From assembly GCA_944392865.1 (NCBI GenBank), contig CALXYD010000002.1, forward strand, positions 4,896 through 68,895: DNA of 64,000 nucleotides. The letters are read 5' to 3'. The position numbers and the translations under genes are program-made. The stretch is from an uncultured Alphaproteobacteria bacterium (lineage in GTDB: Bacteria; Pseudomonadota; Alphaproteobacteria; RF32; CAG-239). Below the pieces are notes generated by a model, which saw only the letters and a program-made list of their open reading frames with translations, made no database searches and was not told the DNA's origin. Shown piece after piece: positions 51,028 to 60,559 of this stretch; the first letter of the stretch is position 1, and every line of letters starts with the position of its first letter.

Positions 51028-51750
51028 TTAACCTGCCGCCTCTTCTTTTACCTCATCTGCCAACCACAACGATTCTTTTATATTTTTTTTCAAAAAATCC
51101 TTATGCGCTTCAACTTGTTCCTCGCTTAAACTAAAAATCCGCGGCTCTCTGTATACTCTGTTTACCTTCTCCACGCCACCGGATATTGCCTGTTTTTTTT
51201 CAGAAACGGCAAAATTCATTGATGGTTCGGCTCCGCCAAGCAATTCCAGATAAACTTCAGCCAGTAACTGCGCATCCAACAACGCTCCGTGAAATGTTCT
51301 GGCTGAATTATCTATTCCGAAACGTTTACAAAGAACATCAAGATTATTTCTTTGCCCTGGGAATTTACTGCGCGCAATTTCCAGTGTATCAACCACCCTG
51401 TCCCAGCTGTATTCCGCATATCCTAACTTTTGCAGTTCATAATTGATAAACTTTATATCAAACGTCGCATTATGCGCAACCAATATCCCGTCATCACCGA
51501 CAAAATCCACAAATTCTTTAGCCACTTTTGCAAAGACGGGAAAACCTTTCAAATACTCTGTTGTCAATCCGTGAACTTTGACAACCTCCTCCGGCACTTC
51601 CCTCTCCGGGTTGATGTATTGATGATACGTCCGCCCGGTCGGCACATGATTAACCAGTTCAAGCGCACCGATTTCAACCAACCTGTCCCCTTTTTCCGGG
51701 TAAAAGCCTGTCGTTTCCGTATCAAACACAATTTCCCTAATACTCGCCAT
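51028..51750 (-). CDS. dnaQ: DNA polymerase III subunit epsilon
   Basis: Exo I IVFDTETTG, Exo II LVAHNATFD and Exo III HGALLDAQLLAEVY. Confidence 0.92.
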   Translation of the reverse strand: MASIREIVFDTETTGFYPEKGDRLVEIGALELVNHVPTGRTYHQYINPEREVPEEVVKVHGLTTEYLKGFPVFAKVAKEFVDFVGDDGILVAHNATFDIKFINYELQKLGYAEYSWDRVVDTLEIARSKFPGQRNNLDVLCKRFGIDNSARTFHGALLDAQLLAEVYLELLGGAEPSMNFAVSEKKQAISGGVEKVNRVYREPRIFSLSEEQVEAHKDFLKKNIKESLWLADEVKEEAAG

Positions 51751-52324
51751 CTTCCAAAACTTTCACCAATTCAACAACATTTCTGCGCAATTTGTTTTTA
51801 CCGACACCTGTATCAATAATAATATCAGCTTTCATTTTCTTAACTTCCCGCGGCATCTGCTGCTTGTTTATTTTATCAAAATCATCCGCCGATATATTAT
51901 CACGACGCATAACCCTCTGTTTCTGCGTTTCATAATCGGTATCCGCTAAAACAACGCTATAACAAAATTTATCCCATTTTAATTCAAAAAGCAACGCAAC
52001 ATCAACAAAAACTATACCTTTATTAACTCTTTTACGAATAATACGCCGCATTTTTTGCGTCAAAAACGGATGTATTAAAGCCTCAAGCTCTCTTAATTTG
52101 GCCGGATTATCAAAGACCAACTCTCTTAATTTCTTTTTATCAAAAACATTTCCAACAAAAACTTCCGGAAATTTTTTTCGGATAACTGCTAAAAAATCAG
52201 CTCTGTAATATAGATACCTTACCCATTTATCTATATCGTAAACCAAATACCCCAAAGAACGCAAAATATCGGAAATAGTCGTTTTCCCGCAACCGATAGA
52301 CCCTGTAATTGCAACCAACTTCAT
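51737..52324 (-). CDS. coaE: dephospho-CoA kinase
   Basis: I trimmed the start to MKLVAITGSIGCGKTT (P-loop), with GAGG ~8 nt upstream. It overlaps the dnaQ start by 14 nt. Confidence 0.88.
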   Translation of the reverse strand: MKLVAITGSIGCGKTTISDILRSLGYLVYDIDKWVRYLYYRADFLAVIRKKFPEVFVGNVFDKKKLRELVFDNPAKLRELEALIHPFLTQKMRRIIRKRVNKGIVFVDVALLFELKWDKFCYSVVLADTDYETQKQRVMRRDNISADDFDKINKQQMPREVKKMKADIIIDTGVGKNKLRRNVVELVKVLEDGEY

Positions 52325-52477
52325 AACCCGCCTCAAAAATCTCTTATACACATCTTGAAACAACCCTGTGCATAATTATATCATTTAAAAACAACACCTT
52401 CATTTTATCACCACTGCCCCAAAACAGAGCAACCACTTATAAACAAGTTCATAAAATATTCCCCCGCCCTTGCCTTT

Positions 52478-52631
52478 TGTGAATAACTCATCATATCCAC
52501 AAAAAATAAACTTTCATCAATAAATTGATTTTAAAACAACTTTTTGGAGTCGTGCACAACCTTTTAAACACCTCCCCTGAAATCTGGATAAAAACGGTAT
52601 AAAATTTAATCCACATAATCTGTCAGGATAA
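52478..52631. promoter_or_regulatory. cluster of DnaA-box-like 9-mers (candidate oriC or DnaA-regulated rho leader)
   Basis: TGTGAATAA (52478), ATATCCACA (52493), TCTGGATAA (52583) and TAATCCACA (52607) are each one mismatch from TTATCCACA/TGTGGATAA. TCAGGATAA (52623) has two mismatches. A very AT-rich stretch (52620-52800) follows. Confidence 0.45.
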
Positions 52632-52813
52632 ACAAATAACCATAAAAAATTTCTTTTAAATAAATTTGGAAAAAACAGATGTTCATAACTTTTTCCAAAC
52701 TGACAGACATCTCGTTTTCAAAAAATCACATTTAAATTGACATCTTTGAAAAACACTTTATAACATCTAACAAATAAATCTTAATTTTTTCTTACCAACG
52801 TTAGGTTAAATCC

Positions 52814-54067
52814 ATGCATTTAAAAGAATTAAAAGACAAAACTCCTAAACAGTTGCTTACTCAAGCTGAAGAATTAGGTGTTGAAGACGCTTCCTCTATG
52901 CGTGTTCAGGACTTGGTTTTTGCCATAATGAAAAAAGTTGCCGAAGACGACAATATTTTGTATGGCGATGGTGTTATTGAAGTAATGCCTGATGGATTTG
53001 GCTTCTTGCGTTCTGCGCGCTCCAATTATCTGGCCTCTGCAGATGATATCTATGTTTCTCCGCAACAAGTAAAAAAATACGGCTTGCGCACAGGGGATAC
53101 CGTTGAGGGCGAAATCAGAGCTCCGCGTGAAAATGAAAGATATTTTGCTTTAACCAAAATAAATACAATCAATTACGACGATCCGGAAAAGTCCAAATTA
53201 CGCGTCAATTTTGATAATCTAACCCCTTTATATCCGACTGAAAAGTTAAATTTTGATATAATTTGCGGTGAAAAAGATTATACAACCCGCGTGATAGATT
53301 TAATATCACCGCAAGGCAAAGGGCAAAGAGGGTTGATTGTTGCCCCGCCGCGCACGGGTAAAACGGTTATGCTGCAAAACATTGCTCACGCCATCGCCTG
53401 TAATCACCCGGAAGTTTATCTGATTGTATTGCTAATCGATGAGCGCCCCGAAGAGGTAACAGATATGACCAGATCTGTTAAAGGTGAAGTTATATCCTCC
53501 ACTTTTGATGAACCGGCGGCGCGCCATGTTCAAGTTGCGGAAATGGTAATTGAAAAAGCCAAACGTTTGGTTGAAACAAAAAAAGACGTTGTCATCTTAT
53601 TGGATTCCATAACCAGATTAGGGCGAGCCTATAATACCGTTCTTCCTTCATCTGGTAAGGTTTTAACCGGTGGTGTTGATGCTAATGCGCTTCAGCGTCC
53701 GAAAAGATTGCTGGGCGCAGCGCGCAATGTTGAAGAAGGCGGTTCTTTAACGATTATTGCTACAGCTTTAATTGATACCGGTTCTCGTATGGATGAAGTT
53801 ATATTTGAAGAGTTTAAGGGAACAGGTAATTCTGAAATTATTTTGGATAGAAAATTGACTGATAAACGGTTATTCCCGACAATAGATATTACGCGCTCCG
53901 GCACCAGAAAAGAAGAGTTATTGGTTGATAGAGTTACTTTAAGTAAAATGTGGGTTCTGCGCCGTGTTCTGATGCAAATGGGAATGACGGATGGAATGGA
54001 GTTTTTGTTGGATAAGCTGAAGCAATCCAAAGATAATAAAGACTTTTTCAATAATATGAATAGTTAA
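52814..54067 (+). CDS. rho: transcription termination factor Rho
   Basis: N-terminal [13 protein letters not shown], a CSD-like RNA-binding domain (GFGFLR), Walker A PPRTGKT and the RecA-type core. Confidence 0.97.
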
Positions 54068-55068
54068 ACTTTTAGTGCAAAAATTCTTTTCATTAGGGGC
54101 GATTTTGAAACCAAATACGCTATAGTGATAGGTAATATAAATTTGAACATTGTAATCAATAGCTTAACATAAATTACAGTTGCGTCGGTATTAGCTGTTT
54201 TATAATAGTCATTCCATGGTAAAATAAGCACGTCAACACTATGCACACAAAGCATGACAATCGTATATCGCCCCAAAAAAGCCATTATTTTTGAAGTTTT
54301 AGTATTTTGTTCCAACCAGCGACAATATAATAAAACCAAATAGCTTGCAGCAAGTGCTACAATAATATCTGTTATAAGGTGCTCCGAATAATTATGAGCA
54401 ATTAAAAATTGACTCCGAATGTTAATTCCGACCGAAAAAATGCAAAGCAAAGGAAGAACAGCACCTAAAGACGGATGATAATCCATAATCCGATATTGCT
54501 TCCCTTTATAGCCGATATAGATAAATAATACGGCTGTCATGGCAGATTGAATGCTAAACGGAAACCAAATATAATTTGTAGAAAAATATCCTATGCAAAA
54601 AATAATACACAGAGCCGTTTTCTGATATTTATACTGTAACAGCATATTCAAAATTATAAATCCGAAAAACAGCGCCAGGCAAAACCAAACCGGTCCTATA
54701 TCGGTAATTTTATATCCAAAAACGTGATTGATATAACCGCTACCGTATAAAAAACCGATAAAATAATTCCATACCCCTAAAAGAATATCGGAAAACGATA
54801 TCCCCGCCAAAAGGTTCTTTAGTATATAAATAAAGATGACAACACCTCCCACCAGTAAATAAGGAATAATAAGTTGTCTGAATTTTACCTTAACTAGGTC
54901 TATCGTGCTGGAATAAGGCTTAAAAAAGTATCCGCTGAGAAGAAAAAATAAAGGTATGTGGAACGTATAAACAAAACGGTTAATATCCGGCACCCCGAAA
55001 TGTCCCAGAATAACCATCATCATCGCTATAAACTTAGCTATGTCAAAATAAGCGATTCTCATTATCAC
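54064..55068 (-). CDS. acyltransferase-3 family membrane protein
   Basis: 334 aa and polytopic. The N-terminus ([17 protein letters not shown]) is typical of OatA/WecH-type acyltransferases. The gene is very AT-rich, and its 3-prime end overlaps the rho stop by 4 nt in convergent orientation. Confidence 0.75.
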
Positions 55069-56544: not shown

Positions 56545-57873
56545 TTATATGTCTTTGTATTTGCATAAGATAAAGTGCTTTTCTATTTGTTCAATAAATG
56601 AGCTGCCTTCACCTATATATGCGGCAATGTTTGGTATATACAAATCAGGATTCTCTACTAAAATATAATCAAGAATATCACAGTATTTGTAAAAATTATT
56701 ATAGTTTAGATTTGTATTATTTAAGCATAAACGCTTAAGAATTATAATTATATAATTTAAAATATTTGTTCGGTCAAAACAGAAAAAAGAATCTGTATGA
56801 AATAATCTTATTAAGAATTGTATTTCTTTTCCACACACTTCAATATCATCAGTAGGCTCTATAAACGAAAAAATATCGTCAATAAAATATTTCCGAATGA
56901 AGCGATGATTAAATATTTGCCTATCCTTATTAGTGTGAAGCAAATAATTGCAAAGTGTGAGGCAAAATAATTTATGTTCAGGAGCGCTTTGTGCAGTAAT
57001 TGTAATTAAATCGAAAAGATAATAATAATCTTCTTTCAAACAATTTGGTTTTGAAAGTGTATTCAGTACTAAATTTTGTAATTCATCAGGAGTGATGTTT
57101 ACATGCATATATTTTGTATTTATTATTTTTTCTATTTCGTTTTTGTAAGTGCGTAGGACAATATTAGCGCTAAACTCTTTTTGTAACAACAAATACGCTA
57201 CAGTATTTAATATTTTCCAATATAAATATATTGTGTGATTGGTAAGATTTAATATACGGTTTAATATCAGAACAAATTTATCTATGGATATTTCTCTGTT
57301 CATTAAAGCAGACAAGACAGAATCAATCCAACATAAATAAGTATTTTCGTTATCGTGAGTTTCTTTGTTGTATTCAAACAGGCATATTTTTCTAAATAAA
57401 TTTTTTATAAGCATATTATAATTATTTTTATATATAAGGTTTTTTATAATGAAATTTTGGTAAATGCGGACAATAAGGAAATCCTGACTTATATATGTTG
57501 TTTCACGTGAAACTTTATCAAGATAATCACCTATTTTTTCGCAATCATATCTAGTTAGGTATCTCTTTAATTTACTTTGTGGTAATGTTGATAATTTTAC
57601 AAGTTCGAAAAGATTTCGCTTTTTCAGAATCGTATTATCCTCAACAGAATTATAAAAGTTTTCAATTATCTTCTCAATATCTTTTTTGCTTAAATCTGAA
57701 ACATTAACGCGTAAAATATTTTCGGTTAATGTCAGTTCATACGCATTATCAAAATATTTTTTTATAAGCAAATTATTCATGGTTTGATAAAATTTTTTAT
57801 TATCAGCATCGCTCATTATCTTACTTATAAGTTTATGACGTTTTTCTAAGATAGTGTTTAAATCGTAATCCAT
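56545..57873 (-). CDS. orphan hypothetical protein, very AT-rich, all-helical composition
   Basis: 442-aa uninterrupted ORF rich in Asn/Ile/Lys/Tyr/Leu. I recognise no motif. It is inserted between mnmE and mnmG and contains a parS-like site. Confidence 0.5.
   Translation of the reverse strand: MDYDLNTILEKRHKLISKIMSDADNKKFYQTMNNLLIKKYFDNAYELTLTENILRVNVSDLSKKDIEKIIENFYNSVEDNTILKKRNLFELVKLSTLPQSKLKRYLTRYDCEKIGDYLDKVSRETTYISQDFLIVRIYQNFIIKNLIYKNNYNMLIKNLFRKICLFEYNKETHDNENTYLCWIDSVLSALMNREISIDKFVLILNRILNLTNHTIYLYWKILNTVAYLLLQKEFSANIVLRTYKNEIEKIINTKYMHVNITPDELQNLVLNTLSKPNCLKEDYYYLFDLITITAQSAPEHKLFCLTLCNYLLHTNKDRQIFNHRFIRKYFIDDIFSFIEPTDDIEVCGKEIQFLIRLFHTDSFFCFDRTNILNYIIIILKRLCLNNTNLNYNNFYKYCDILDYILVENPDLYIPNIAAYIGEGSSFIEQIEKHFILCKYKDI
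57499..57514. promoter_or_regulatory. parS site (TGTTTCACGTGAAACT, 15/16 match)
   Basis: Matches the canonical parS palindrome TGTTNCACGTGAAACA except at the last base. It lies inside the orphan gene and encodes VSRET. Confidence 0.8.
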
Positions 57874-58030: not shown

Positions 58031-59875
58031 ATGGAGTATGATGTTATAGTTGTTGGTGGTGGACACGCCGGATGTGAAGCTTGTGCTGCAGCTGCACGAA
58101 TGGGAGTGCGGACAGCTCTTATTACGCATAATATAAAAACAATAGGTGAGATGTCATGTAATCCGGCCATCGGAGGTTTAGGCAAAGGGCATCTTGTTAG
58201 AGAGATAGACGCCTTGGATGGGGTTATGGGAAAAGTCATCGATAGAGCGGGTATACAATTCCGTATGCTTAATGCATCCAAAGGACCGGCTGTTAGAGGT
58301 CCCCGCGCTCAAGCTGATAGAGAACTCTATAAGAAATATATGTTGGAAGCGCTAAACGAATATAAAAATTTGGATATTATCGAAGGTGCTGTTGAACACT
58401 TGATAATTAAAAATCAAAAAATTGAAGGAATCCGCTTATCAAATGGTGTTGAATATTATGCAGCTTCAGTTGTGCTGACAACGGGAACTTTCTTAAATGG
58501 TGTTATGTTCGTAGGACATGAACAAACAGTAGGTGGGCGTATCAACGACGTTACTTGTACAGGGATAACAGCGTATTTAAAAAATGCAGGATTGAAAGTC
58601 GGACGGCTTAAAACAGGAACACCGGCAAGATTAGATGGAAAGACAATAAATTGGGATTGTTTAGAAGAACAATCCGGAGATATCCATCCTCAACCTTTCT
58701 CATTTTTATCCGGTAAAATTAAACAGCCGCAGATAAAATGCCATATAACATACACAAACGAATCGACACATAAAATCATTCGGGATAACTTTTCCAAATG
58801 TGCTTTGTTTTCTGGGTTAATTACAGGCGTTGGACCTCGTTATTGCCCGAGTATAGAAGATAAACTGGTTAAATTCGCTGACCGGACGAGTCATCAAATA
58901 TTTTTGGAACCGGAAGGGTATAATACAAATGTTGTTTATCCGAATGGAATATCCACATCTCTACCGGCGGATGTGCAGGAGCAATTTATCCATACAATAA
59001 AAGGGCTGGAAAACGTAAAAATTCTCCGTTACGCATATGCGATTGAATATGATTATGTTGACCCGATGGAGTTGAATCATTGCTTGAAAACAAAAAAAGT
59101 GGATGGTTTATATTTGGCCGGTCAAATCAATGGAACGACCGGTTATGAGGAAGCTGCAGCTCAAGGACTTGTAGCCGGTGCTAATGCGGCATTATCTGCA
59201 CAAAAGAGCAGTAAAGAATTTTTTATTGATAGGAGTGAAGGTTACATTGGCGTTATGATTGATGATTTGATAACAAAAGGAATCGATGAACCTTATCGTA
59301 TGTTTACTTCCCGCTCTGAATATCGATTATACCTTCGTGCTGATAATGCGGATTTACGGCTAACAGAAAAAGGATATGAAATTGGTTGTGTATCGCAGTA
59401 TAGATACAGTGTATTTAAAATGAAAAAAGAACAATTGGATACTTGCCGGCAAATATCTAAAAATACATATATTTTAGCAAAAGAAATTGATGACTTCAGT
59501 TTGCCGTTGAAAAAAGAAAACAATAAAAAAACTGTTTTTGAATTGCTTGGATATAACGATGTTTCACGTGAAACAATTAACAACTTGTGCCCGGCTTTAG
59601 CGGAGGTAACAGATGAAGTCTATGAACAACTTTGCATAGAATCTAAATATGCCGGTTATATGAAAAGGCAAAATAACGATATCGAAACATTTAAAAAAGA
59701 TGAAAATATAAAAATTAAATCTAATCTTGATTATACAAAAATTGGCGGCTTATCAAGAGAAGTTGTTGCTAAATTGGAAAAGGTAAGACCCTCAACGATC
59801 GGTGAGGCTTCACGCATTCCGGGGATAACGCCGGCCGCAATTATCGCTGTTTTGAGCTATATGAAAAACAATTAA
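58031..59875 (+). CDS. mnmG: tRNA uridine-5-carboxymethylaminomethyl synthesis enzyme MnmG
   Basis: [18 protein letters not shown] motif, [23 protein letters not shown], and full length of 614 aa. Confidence 0.97.
58568..58581 (+). repeat. copy ACAGCGTATTTAAA inside mnmG
   Basis: Identical to the 14-mer at 22235. Confidence 0.9.
59406..59419 (+). repeat. copy ACAGTGTATTTAAA inside mnmG
   Basis: Exact 14-mer, encoding Y-S-V-F-K. Confidence 0.9.
59560..59575. promoter_or_regulatory. parS site (TGTTTCACGTGAAACA, perfect)
   Basis: Perfect 16-bp canonical parS palindrome within the 3-prime part of mnmG. Confidence 0.9.
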
Positions 59876-59941: not shown

Positions 59942-60559
59942 ATGATGAATGTTATCGAAAAATGTAAGGTTTCACGTGAAACAGTTGATGGGTTAAAAAC
60001 TTACCAACAACTGGTTTTAGAATGGAATCATCGGTTCAATTTAATTAGCAAACAATCAGAAGCGGTAATTTGGGAAAGGCATATTCTCGATTCGTTGCAA
60101 TTATGCGAATATATAAAAGCTCAAGATGAAATTTTGCTTGATTTAGGTGCTGGTGCCGGTTTCCCTGGGATTGTAATAGCAATAGCCGCTAAGCAGCTTT
60201 TTCCAAAATTAACTATACACCTGGTTGAAAGTATAGCTAAAAAAGTTTCGTTTCTTAATATGGTTAAGGATACGCTTGAATTGAAGGTGATAGTTCACCA
60301 TGATAGAATCGAAAATATAAAGCTAAAAAATGTTGATATCATTACTTCACGAGCACTCGCATCACTTCCAAAATTATTGGAATATTCAATTCCTTTTTGC
60401 AACAAAAATACAAAAATGTTATTCTTAAAAGGGGAAAAATGGGAAAGTGAAGTAAGGGAGGCTCTTCAACTTAGAAATTTTGAATTTACAGCCATATCCA
60501 GCCAAACAGATGAAAAGGGAAAAATACTATATATAAATAAATTGGGAGATGAAATTTAA
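59942..60559 (+). CDS. rsmG: 16S rRNA (guanine527-N7)-methyltransferase RsmG
   Basis: VSRETVDGLKTYQQLVLEWNHRFNLIS N-terminus, SAM motif DLGAGAGFPG, and TSRA. Confidence 0.9.
   Translation: MMNVIEKCKVSRETVDGLKTYQQLVLEWNHRFNLISKQSEAVIWERHILDSLQLCEYIKAQDEILLDLGAGAGFPGIVIAIAAKQLFPKLTIHLVESIAKKVSFLNMVKDTLELKVIVHHDRIENIKLKNVDIITSRALASLPKLLEYSIPFCNKNTKMLFLKGEKWESEVREALQLRNFEFTAISSQTDEKGKILYINKLGDEI
59968..59983. promoter_or_regulatory. parS site (GGTTTCACGTGAAACA, 15/16 match)
   Basis: One mismatch at the first base. It lies in the first codons of rsmG. Confidence 0.8.

Follow-up and report, generated by a model that had tools for sequence, protein, structure and literature searches.

The spacer between the divergent genes coaE and rho is, we are confident, the chromosomal replication origin (oriC) of an uncultured alphaproteobacterium of the gut/rumen type. 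It lies in a window of 64,000 nucleotides (the whole stretch of DNA analyzed, G000:C2:4896-68895), where G000 is the assembly of this genome, a metagenome-assembled genome (MAG) of 1.58 Mb in 87 contigs that is 97.9% complete. That the spacer may be oriC had been proposed earlier from the letters of the window. The proposal is now supported by the cluster of DnaA boxes, by the conservation of the cluster, by synteny with the Caulobacter origin (Cori), by a change point in GC skew and by nearby parS sites. The spacer thus combines a box cluster, an A+T-rich element beside the boxes (located in silico), a switch in skew, and sites conserved beyond the neutral level. The spacers compared number 17 (G000, 15 genomes of the same genus and one of the same order) and were aligned with MAFFT. 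G016 is a near-complete relative, of which 1.885 Mb in 12 contigs were used, and skew was compared in four species of one genus, G000, G016, G005 and G009.

Six boxes with at most one mismatch to the classic DnaA box lie within 272 bp, where 0.23 are expected from the composition of the spacer (the mean of 20,000 first-order Markov resamplings, with a maximum of 3). Boxes occur at 0.41 per kb over the whole assembly, and the spacer holds the densest cluster both in the 1.58-Mb G000 and in the 1.885-Mb G016. A denser cluster elsewhere, which would have pointed to another origin, was found in neither. A scan with TTATNNACA also places the spacer at the top, with 5 sites in G000 and 7 in G016, the next locus having 3 in each. 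The original prediction listed four one-mismatch boxes (D, E, G and H in Table 1), all of which are where it placed them, but the list was incomplete. Four further sites are present: boxes A and B, which also have one mismatch, and boxes C and I, which fit the pattern of the genus. The two-mismatch site that it gave at 52623, TCAGGATAA, is there as well, only it has three mismatches in most relatives and so is probably not a DnaA box. Altogether, eight sites spread over 345 bp fit the genus pattern.

The rho gene was found in 28 of 30 relatives searched, and coaE stands divergently upstream of it in all 15 same-genus genomes with enough flank and in the one same-order genome, at a spacer length of 445-543 bp. 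DnaA-box-like 9-mers share columns and orientation across the alignment. When the eight sites are pooled over 14 genus members, TTAT (positions 1-4) and ACA (positions 7-9) show 90-96% conservation, with position 5 free to vary and C or A at position 6, which gives TTAT-N-[C/A]-ACA as the genus-level box. Boxes C and I are preserved as TTAT(A/T)AACA-type sites, box C reading TTATAAACA or TTATTAACA in 15 of the 17 spacers, and box H is a perfect TTATCCACA in two. The conservation of box G is weaker (at most one mismatch in 4/17 spacers, at most two in 9/17). Box columns have a mean pairwise identity of 83.5%, as against 70% for the spacer core, 66% for its non-box columns and 54% for the third codon positions of rho. 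The excess of the box columns over the rho third positions argues that the box sites are under purifying selection. The DnaA of this organism retains the domain-IV segments that contact the box, VARPRQ, LPEIG and RDHTTV.

The boxes are arranged largely in pairs. A and B face each other with 14 bp between them, and a conserved CTATAT block adjoins B. Box C stands alone. The pairs D/E and G/H are both divergent, separated by 6 bp and 15 bp respectively. Box A is identical in sequence to the R2 box of Escherichia coli. Box H points into an A+T-rich tract, and box I points back into it from the opposite side. The very A+T-rich DNA of about 180 bp described earlier holds up, in that 52632-52813 is 76.4% A+T and ranks in the top 0.2% of the genome's 180-bp windows. 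In a nearest-neighbor stability scan, the top minimum-stability window starts at alignment column 329-331 in 12/17 spacers. The single GANTC of the spacer, a candidate site for CcrM methylation, lies in its most conserved block, and the genome encodes a full-length CcrM ortholog (PDB 6pbd, E = 6.5e-147). A CtrA ortholog is also present. A canonical CtrA box (TTAA-N7-TTAAC) occupies a fixed alignment column, 74, between boxes B and C in 6/17 spacers (L004-L008 and L014). That column corresponds to about 52385-52400 of the window, where the box is degenerate in G000 and its closest relative, a distribution which suggests that the genus is losing CtrA control of its origin.

Table 1. Features of the coaE-rho spacer and its surroundings, in window coordinates; counts are of the 17 aligned spacers.
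Feature	Position	Strand	Sequence and remarks
coaE (dephospho-CoA kinase)	51737..52324	minus	TIGR00152, 4.7e-37; ATG at 52324
Candidate oriC (entire coaE-rho spacer)	52325..52813	none	489 bp
DnaA box A	52344..52352	plus	TTATACACA; at most 1 mismatch at the same alignment column in 12/17
DnaA box B	52367..52375	minus	TTATGCACA; at most 1 mismatch in 17/17, including the same-order genome
Probable coaE -10 hexamer	52375..52380	minus	TATAAT; abuts box B; read from sequence
DnaA box C	52437..52445	plus	TTATAAACA; two mismatches to E. coli consensus; fits genus pattern
DnaA box D	52478..52486	minus	TTATTCACA (plus-strand text TGTGAATAA); at most 1 mismatch in 12/17
DnaA box E	52493..52501	plus	ATATCCACA; at most 1 mismatch in 11/17
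IHF-like site	52515..52527	plus	CATCAATAAATTG; 12/13 match to WATCAANNNNTTR, by eye
Most conserved block	52527..52570	none	smoothed column identity 0.86-0.94; holds the single GANTC
GANTC, candidate CcrM methylation site	52547-52551		GAGTC; same column in 15/17
DnaA box G	52583..52591	minus	TTATCCAGA (plus-strand text TCTGGATAA); 1 mismatch
DnaA box H	52607..52615	plus	TAATCCACA; at most 1 mismatch in 16/17
Two-mismatch site	52623..52631	minus	TTATCCTGA; overlaps conserved GATAAACAAATAAC block
Candidate DNA-unwinding element	52628..52667	none	least stable 40-mer of the spacer, 90% A+T
DnaA box I	52680..52688	minus	TTATGAACA; at most 2 mismatches in 16/17, at most 1 in 6
Predicted rho promoter	52737..52764	plus	TTGACA 52737-52742, 16-nt spacer, TATAAC 52759-52764
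rho	52814..54067	plus	TIGR00767, 8.9e-205; ATG at 52814
parS	57499..57514	none	15/16 matches
parS	59560..59575	none	16/16 matches
parS	59968..59983	none	15/16 matches

The position of the spacer in the chromosome is that of a known class of origins. Its divergent flanks were correctly recognized at the outset, as the open reading frame (ORF) positions and the TIGRFAM matches of both genes attest. Leftwards, coaE is the first gene of a coaE-dnaQ-pgeF run (dnaQ by TIGR01406, 3.8e-83), and the minus-strand run continues to ppdK. Rightwards, the order is rho, an acyltransferase (minus), mnmE, an A+T-rich orphan gene (minus), mnmG, rsmG, parA and parB. All of the seven distant alphaproteobacteria compared have coaE 3-9 kb upstream of rho on the opposite strand. 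Six have dnaQ beside coaE, and the seventh showed coaE only. In two distant loci analyzed with Pfam, rho is followed by ferrochelatase, hemE, a gap, and then DUF299 (Kinase-PPPase) and/or maf; in one of them, UPF0093 also adjoins rho, and aroE and coaE lie past maf. It is in this hemE / DUF299-maf layout that the Caulobacter origin was mapped and that other alphaproteobacterial origins were predicted (PMC1914354; PMC6393856). The G000 genome has no hemE, and hemH, hemJ, DUF299, maf and aroE are missing from its coaE-rho locus. Its maf sits on contig C22 with rng, yacG and dksA. The flanks of the spacer are thus coaE and rho, and not the hemE and/or DUF299 of a hemE-type origin. Loss of these genes from the locus would have brought coaE and rho next to the origin, and the wider gene order makes the spacer the positional ortholog of Cori, with genes lost on either flank. 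The absence of hemE, the lack of ferrochelatase and UPF0093 near rho, and the relocation of maf are consistent with a gut anaerobe that no longer makes haem.

The only parS-like sites in G000 are the three in Table 1, 4.7-7.2 kb to the right of the spacer, and G016 likewise has three, at distances of 4.7-7.8 kb from its own. Two minus-strand genes, at 54064-55068 and 56545-57873, break up a rho-mnmE-mnmG block that is otherwise conserved. One encodes an Acyl_transf_3 protein; the other encodes a 442-aa orphan of 25% G+C that matches no family, and one of the three parS sites falls within this gene. The word GTATTTAAA keeps the same orientation on both sides of the spacer, as had been noticed, with 13 copies on contig C2 (window 11730-62592), all on the plus strand. 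Genome-wide, about 10 copies are expected per strand, and 23 plus and 20 minus copies are found. The earlier doubt about a replichore-polar role for it was thus justified, and the word is a local feature of the origin region.

The GC skew switches at the spacer. Raw skew is about -0.2 across the whole contig to the left and about 0 to the right. Gene orientation changes there too, but on the left the genes of both strands have plus-strand skew at third codon positions (GC3 skew) of -0.16 to -0.59, which makes the bias mutational rather than an effect of the coding strand; values to the right scatter around +0.04. For the coaE-side replichore, GC3 skew is -0.3 to -0.4. On a 359-kb contig of G016, which has the spacer at 249.4 kb, GC3 skew is about -0.27 to the left and about +0.09 to the right, and the pattern recurs in G005 and G009. 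Measured from the rho ATG, the least-squares change point is at +48, -12, +41 and +48 bp in these four species, which places the switch at the spacer. A position elsewhere would have told against an origin. The polarity, minus to zero or plus, is that of an origin, with an asymmetric magnitude. The sign of the left skew implies that forks move from the spacer into the coaE side, and a gene-strand bias of 52-61% fits this, with the G-rich strand as the leading one. With the skew near nil on the rho side, the rightward fork is not documented by composition. The orientation of tRNA genes as a marker of fork direction gave contradictory results, and no 16S gene is present in the G016 contigs examined. 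Since synonymous sites are near saturation between these species, as the rho third positions attest, the pattern is evidently maintained now and is not inherited history.

The asymmetry extends over the chromosome. In G016, about 946 kb are strongly skewed (0.15-0.25 in magnitude; 43-58% G+C), and about 930 kb are almost unskewed (mostly 41-51% G+C). There are two large skew boundaries only, a sharp ascending one at the spacer and a gradual descending one at C10, ~130-160 kb. One ascending and one descending boundary make a single block of one sign, with one replichore skewed and the other not, and exclude a strongly skewed block centered on the origin or the terminus. A dif-like site, TTGTCGCATAATATATCTTATGTATACT, lies near the descending boundary in G016, on a 606-kb contig, and its G000 ortholog is at a contig end. 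As a dif-like XerCD site conserved between the two species, it reads TTGTCGCATAATATAT(A/C)TTATGTATACT (G000:C18:28271-28298 and G016:C10:128835-128862), and in G016 it falls about 30 kb before the strongly skewed block ends. With the contig order of G016 as inferred, G+C is about 42% at the origin, rises to 54-58% far along the skewed replichore and then falls, and the weakly skewed half is some 5-10 points lower. In most bacteria, the terminus is the A+T-richer region.

Two simple causes of the weak rho-side skew were rejected. Frequent inversions do not fit the G016 and G005 arms, which are perfectly collinear for 107 kb on each side. Loss of DciA, which in Vibrio makes initiation one-sided (PMC11551766), does not apply, since a search of 19 genus genomes found DciA in 17, G000 among them. 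SkewDB lists ~250 chromosomes with at least threefold asymmetric skew, some with one strand unskewed, and gives no explanation (PMC8941118). By symmetry, an unskewed single replichore points to mixed fork direction on that half. A speculative account, to which we give a small chance, is that the origin of this genus is itself asymmetric, with forks always going coaE-ward and the rho-side half copied in either direction about equally often. For example, a second helicase may be loaded, or the rightward fork may survive, in ~55-65% of cycles, and in the remaining cycles the leftward fork may run around the circle. Such an origin would explain the half-skewed G016 (~946/1885 kb), the sharp and the gradual boundary, and the persistence of the pattern in four species whose arms are fully collinear. 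If it exists, the ~250 SkewDB chromosomes gain a testable mechanism.

The spacer could also be no origin at all, and act as a DnaA-controlled divergent promoter or a titrating locus of the datA/DARS type for coaE-dnaQ and rho, with initiation elsewhere. We regard this as improbable, although several observations suit it. Boxes A and B are directly downstream of the probable coaE -10 hexamer and would therefore be part of the coaE leader; the operon includes a replication gene, dnaQ, which would make DnaA control of it sensible; and the rho side lacks replication skew. There is also a precedent for a DnaA-regulated promoter in this organism. The runner-up cluster in G000 has 4 boxes (C17:6643-6771) in the 177-bp spacer upstream of dnaB, which carries TTATCCACA twice together with ATATCCACA. 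It has no A+T-rich tract and no skew change and was rejected as an origin, and it is most likely a DnaA-regulated promoter of this replicative helicase gene. Tandem perfect boxes (TTATCCACA, then TTATCCACATATCCACA) stand 90-140 bp upstream of dnaB, divergent from a galE-like gene, and the tandem TTATCCACATATCCACA is kept in G016 (C10, about 355.4 kb). The perfect boxes at dnaB indicate that the classic box is the cognate DnaA site of the organism. However, eight boxes over 345 bp are far above the 2-4 of the dnaB promoter, and a regulatory locus leaves unexplained the skew step in four species, the Cori-orthologous position and the parS sites at 5-7 kb.

Nor was another place for initiation found in G000 or G016. 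Upstream of dnaA, which shares C73 with dnaN and recF, neither the 383 bp to hand in G000 nor 1500 bp in G016 contain a box, and an origin there was rejected on that account. With dnaA lacking upstream boxes and hemE absent from the genome, the denser cluster beside either gene that would have undone the original prediction does not exist. The boxes at C1:80881 are inside a gene in an A+T-rich island. On C22, beside maf, an apparent flip of GC3 skew from -0.36 to +0.25 comes from miscalled ORFs in G+C-rich DNA; raw skew there is positive throughout. It might still be supposed that the spacer is a vestige, a remnant of Cori kept for gene regulation after initiation moved into the weakly skewed half, as the unskewed rho-side half and the location of dnaA on a weak-skew contig in both G000 and G016 would allow. 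This is quite unlikely, as near-saturated synonymous sites mean that the sharp step must reflect present-day replication, and neither genome has an alternative box cluster.

Least probable of all is that the spacer mainly serves rho as a long regulatory leader, or encodes a small RNA, with incidental boxes. Autoregulation through the leader is known for enterobacterial Rho, and the 180 bp before rho are A+T-rich with C in excess over G, which is rut-like, but conservation is concentrated in 9-mers of both orientations, the signature of DNA sites, and the predicted promoter is only ~50 nt from the ATG. Its -35, AAATTGACA, is conserved in 16/17 spacers and its -10, TATAA, in most, and a promoter scan finds the same -35 hexamer; the rho leader would then be about 45 nt. 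Just upstream of the promoter, the spacer is at its least conserved and has the most indels. An Rfam search of the spacer gave no match at E <= 1, and RNAalifold gave a consensus energy of -0.06 kcal/mol with no covarying pair and no conserved structure. The long leader offered as an alternative in the original prediction is therefore not borne out.

Several points weigh against reading the spacer as oriC. The skew is not symmetric, with raw values of ~0 and GC3 values of just +0.04 to +0.09 on the rho side. The assembly is a MAG of many contigs, so that skew over the whole replicon can be traced only by inference, with the contigs of a relative. The predicted coaE promoter and leader overlap boxes A and B, which may serve gene regulation rather than initiation. 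The canonical CtrA box was searched for in the G000 spacer and none was found, in keeping with the earlier report that exact TTAA-N7-TTAA is missing. By hand, a DnaA-trio pattern can be read 8 bp after box H (CAG GAT AAA CAA, with GAT AAA CAA conserved in relatives), but the pattern is trivially matched in A+T-rich DNA, and the arrangement of a basal unwinding system (BUS) is not established. That system consists of a DnaA box, at least three NAN trios within 16 bp and then A+T-rich DNA (PMC8287927). The putative site for integration host factor (IHF) matches its consensus at just 12/13 positions. It is perfect (AATCAAAAAATTG) in three relatives, but the consensus WATCAANNNNTTR, as used in PMC1914354, is loose in A+T-rich DNA, and the site is weak evidence.

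If the spacer is the origin, we picture it working as follows. DnaA would bind about eight boxes of the genus type, arranged so that A and B face each other within the coaE leader, C stands alone, and D/E and G/H form divergent pairs. Between boxes H and I, which both point into it, 52628-52667 would be the site of duplex opening and DnaB loading. The single conserved GANTC would be methylated by the CcrM ortholog. The forks leaving coaE-ward would give rise to the strong replication skew, with the rho-side half left nearly unskewed. In position, the origin would descend from a Caulobacter-type origin between hemE and DUF299/maf.

An entire genus of uncultured Alphaproteobacteria from gut and rumen gains a well-supported origin. 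As an anchor, this oriC can serve metagenomic estimates of growth rate (peak-to-trough ratio), the orientation of MAG contigs, and annotation. It also suggests that a hemE-linked origin survives the loss of its boundary genes, and criteria based on hemE and DUF299 would miss it.

Graded DnaA boxes, IHF, an A+T-rich unwinding tract and the neighboring gidA and gidB genes characterize the E. coli origin. The spacer resembles it in having several 9-mers graded to TTATCCACA, including the R2-type TTATACACA, an IHF-like site between boxes, a candidate A+T-rich unwinding tract on one side, and gidA (mnmG) and gidB (rsmG) nearby. It differs in having no GATC/SeqA sites, with a single CcrM-type GANTC instead, no recognizable 13-mer repeats, and other flanking genes.

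The closer likeness in position is to Cori and the hemE-linked origins of Rickettsia, Wolbachia and Ehrlichia (PMC1914354; PMC6393856), which lie at the same chromosomal position, between a maf-aroE-coaE-dnaQ run and a hemE-hemH-rho-mnmE-mnmG-rsmG-parAB run. As in these, the origin is intergenic, of ~400-500 bp, with 5-8 mostly imperfect DnaA boxes and an A+T-rich tract of ~40 bp. GANTC with a CcrM ortholog, a CtrA ortholog and parS a few kb away are also shared, and promoters, predicted here, fire outward from the origin edges. Unlike in the Cori type, the boundary genes are gone, hemE from the genome and DUF299 from the locus. Cori has five TTAA-N7-TTAA boxes and five GANTC sites, whereas the G000 spacer has none of the former and one of the latter. 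The G000 boxes are near the E. coli consensus, as TTAT-N-[C/A]-ACA, in contrast to the G and W boxes of Caulobacter. Finally, the skew leaving the G000 origin is strongly one-sided. In this it resembles the asymmetric chromosomes of SkewDB, whose two replichores differ at least threefold in skew, and it supplies a conserved, base-precise example of that listed but unexplained anomaly. Here, the asymmetry is conserved across four species of a genus, its boundary falls with base precision at oriC, and the arms are collinear.

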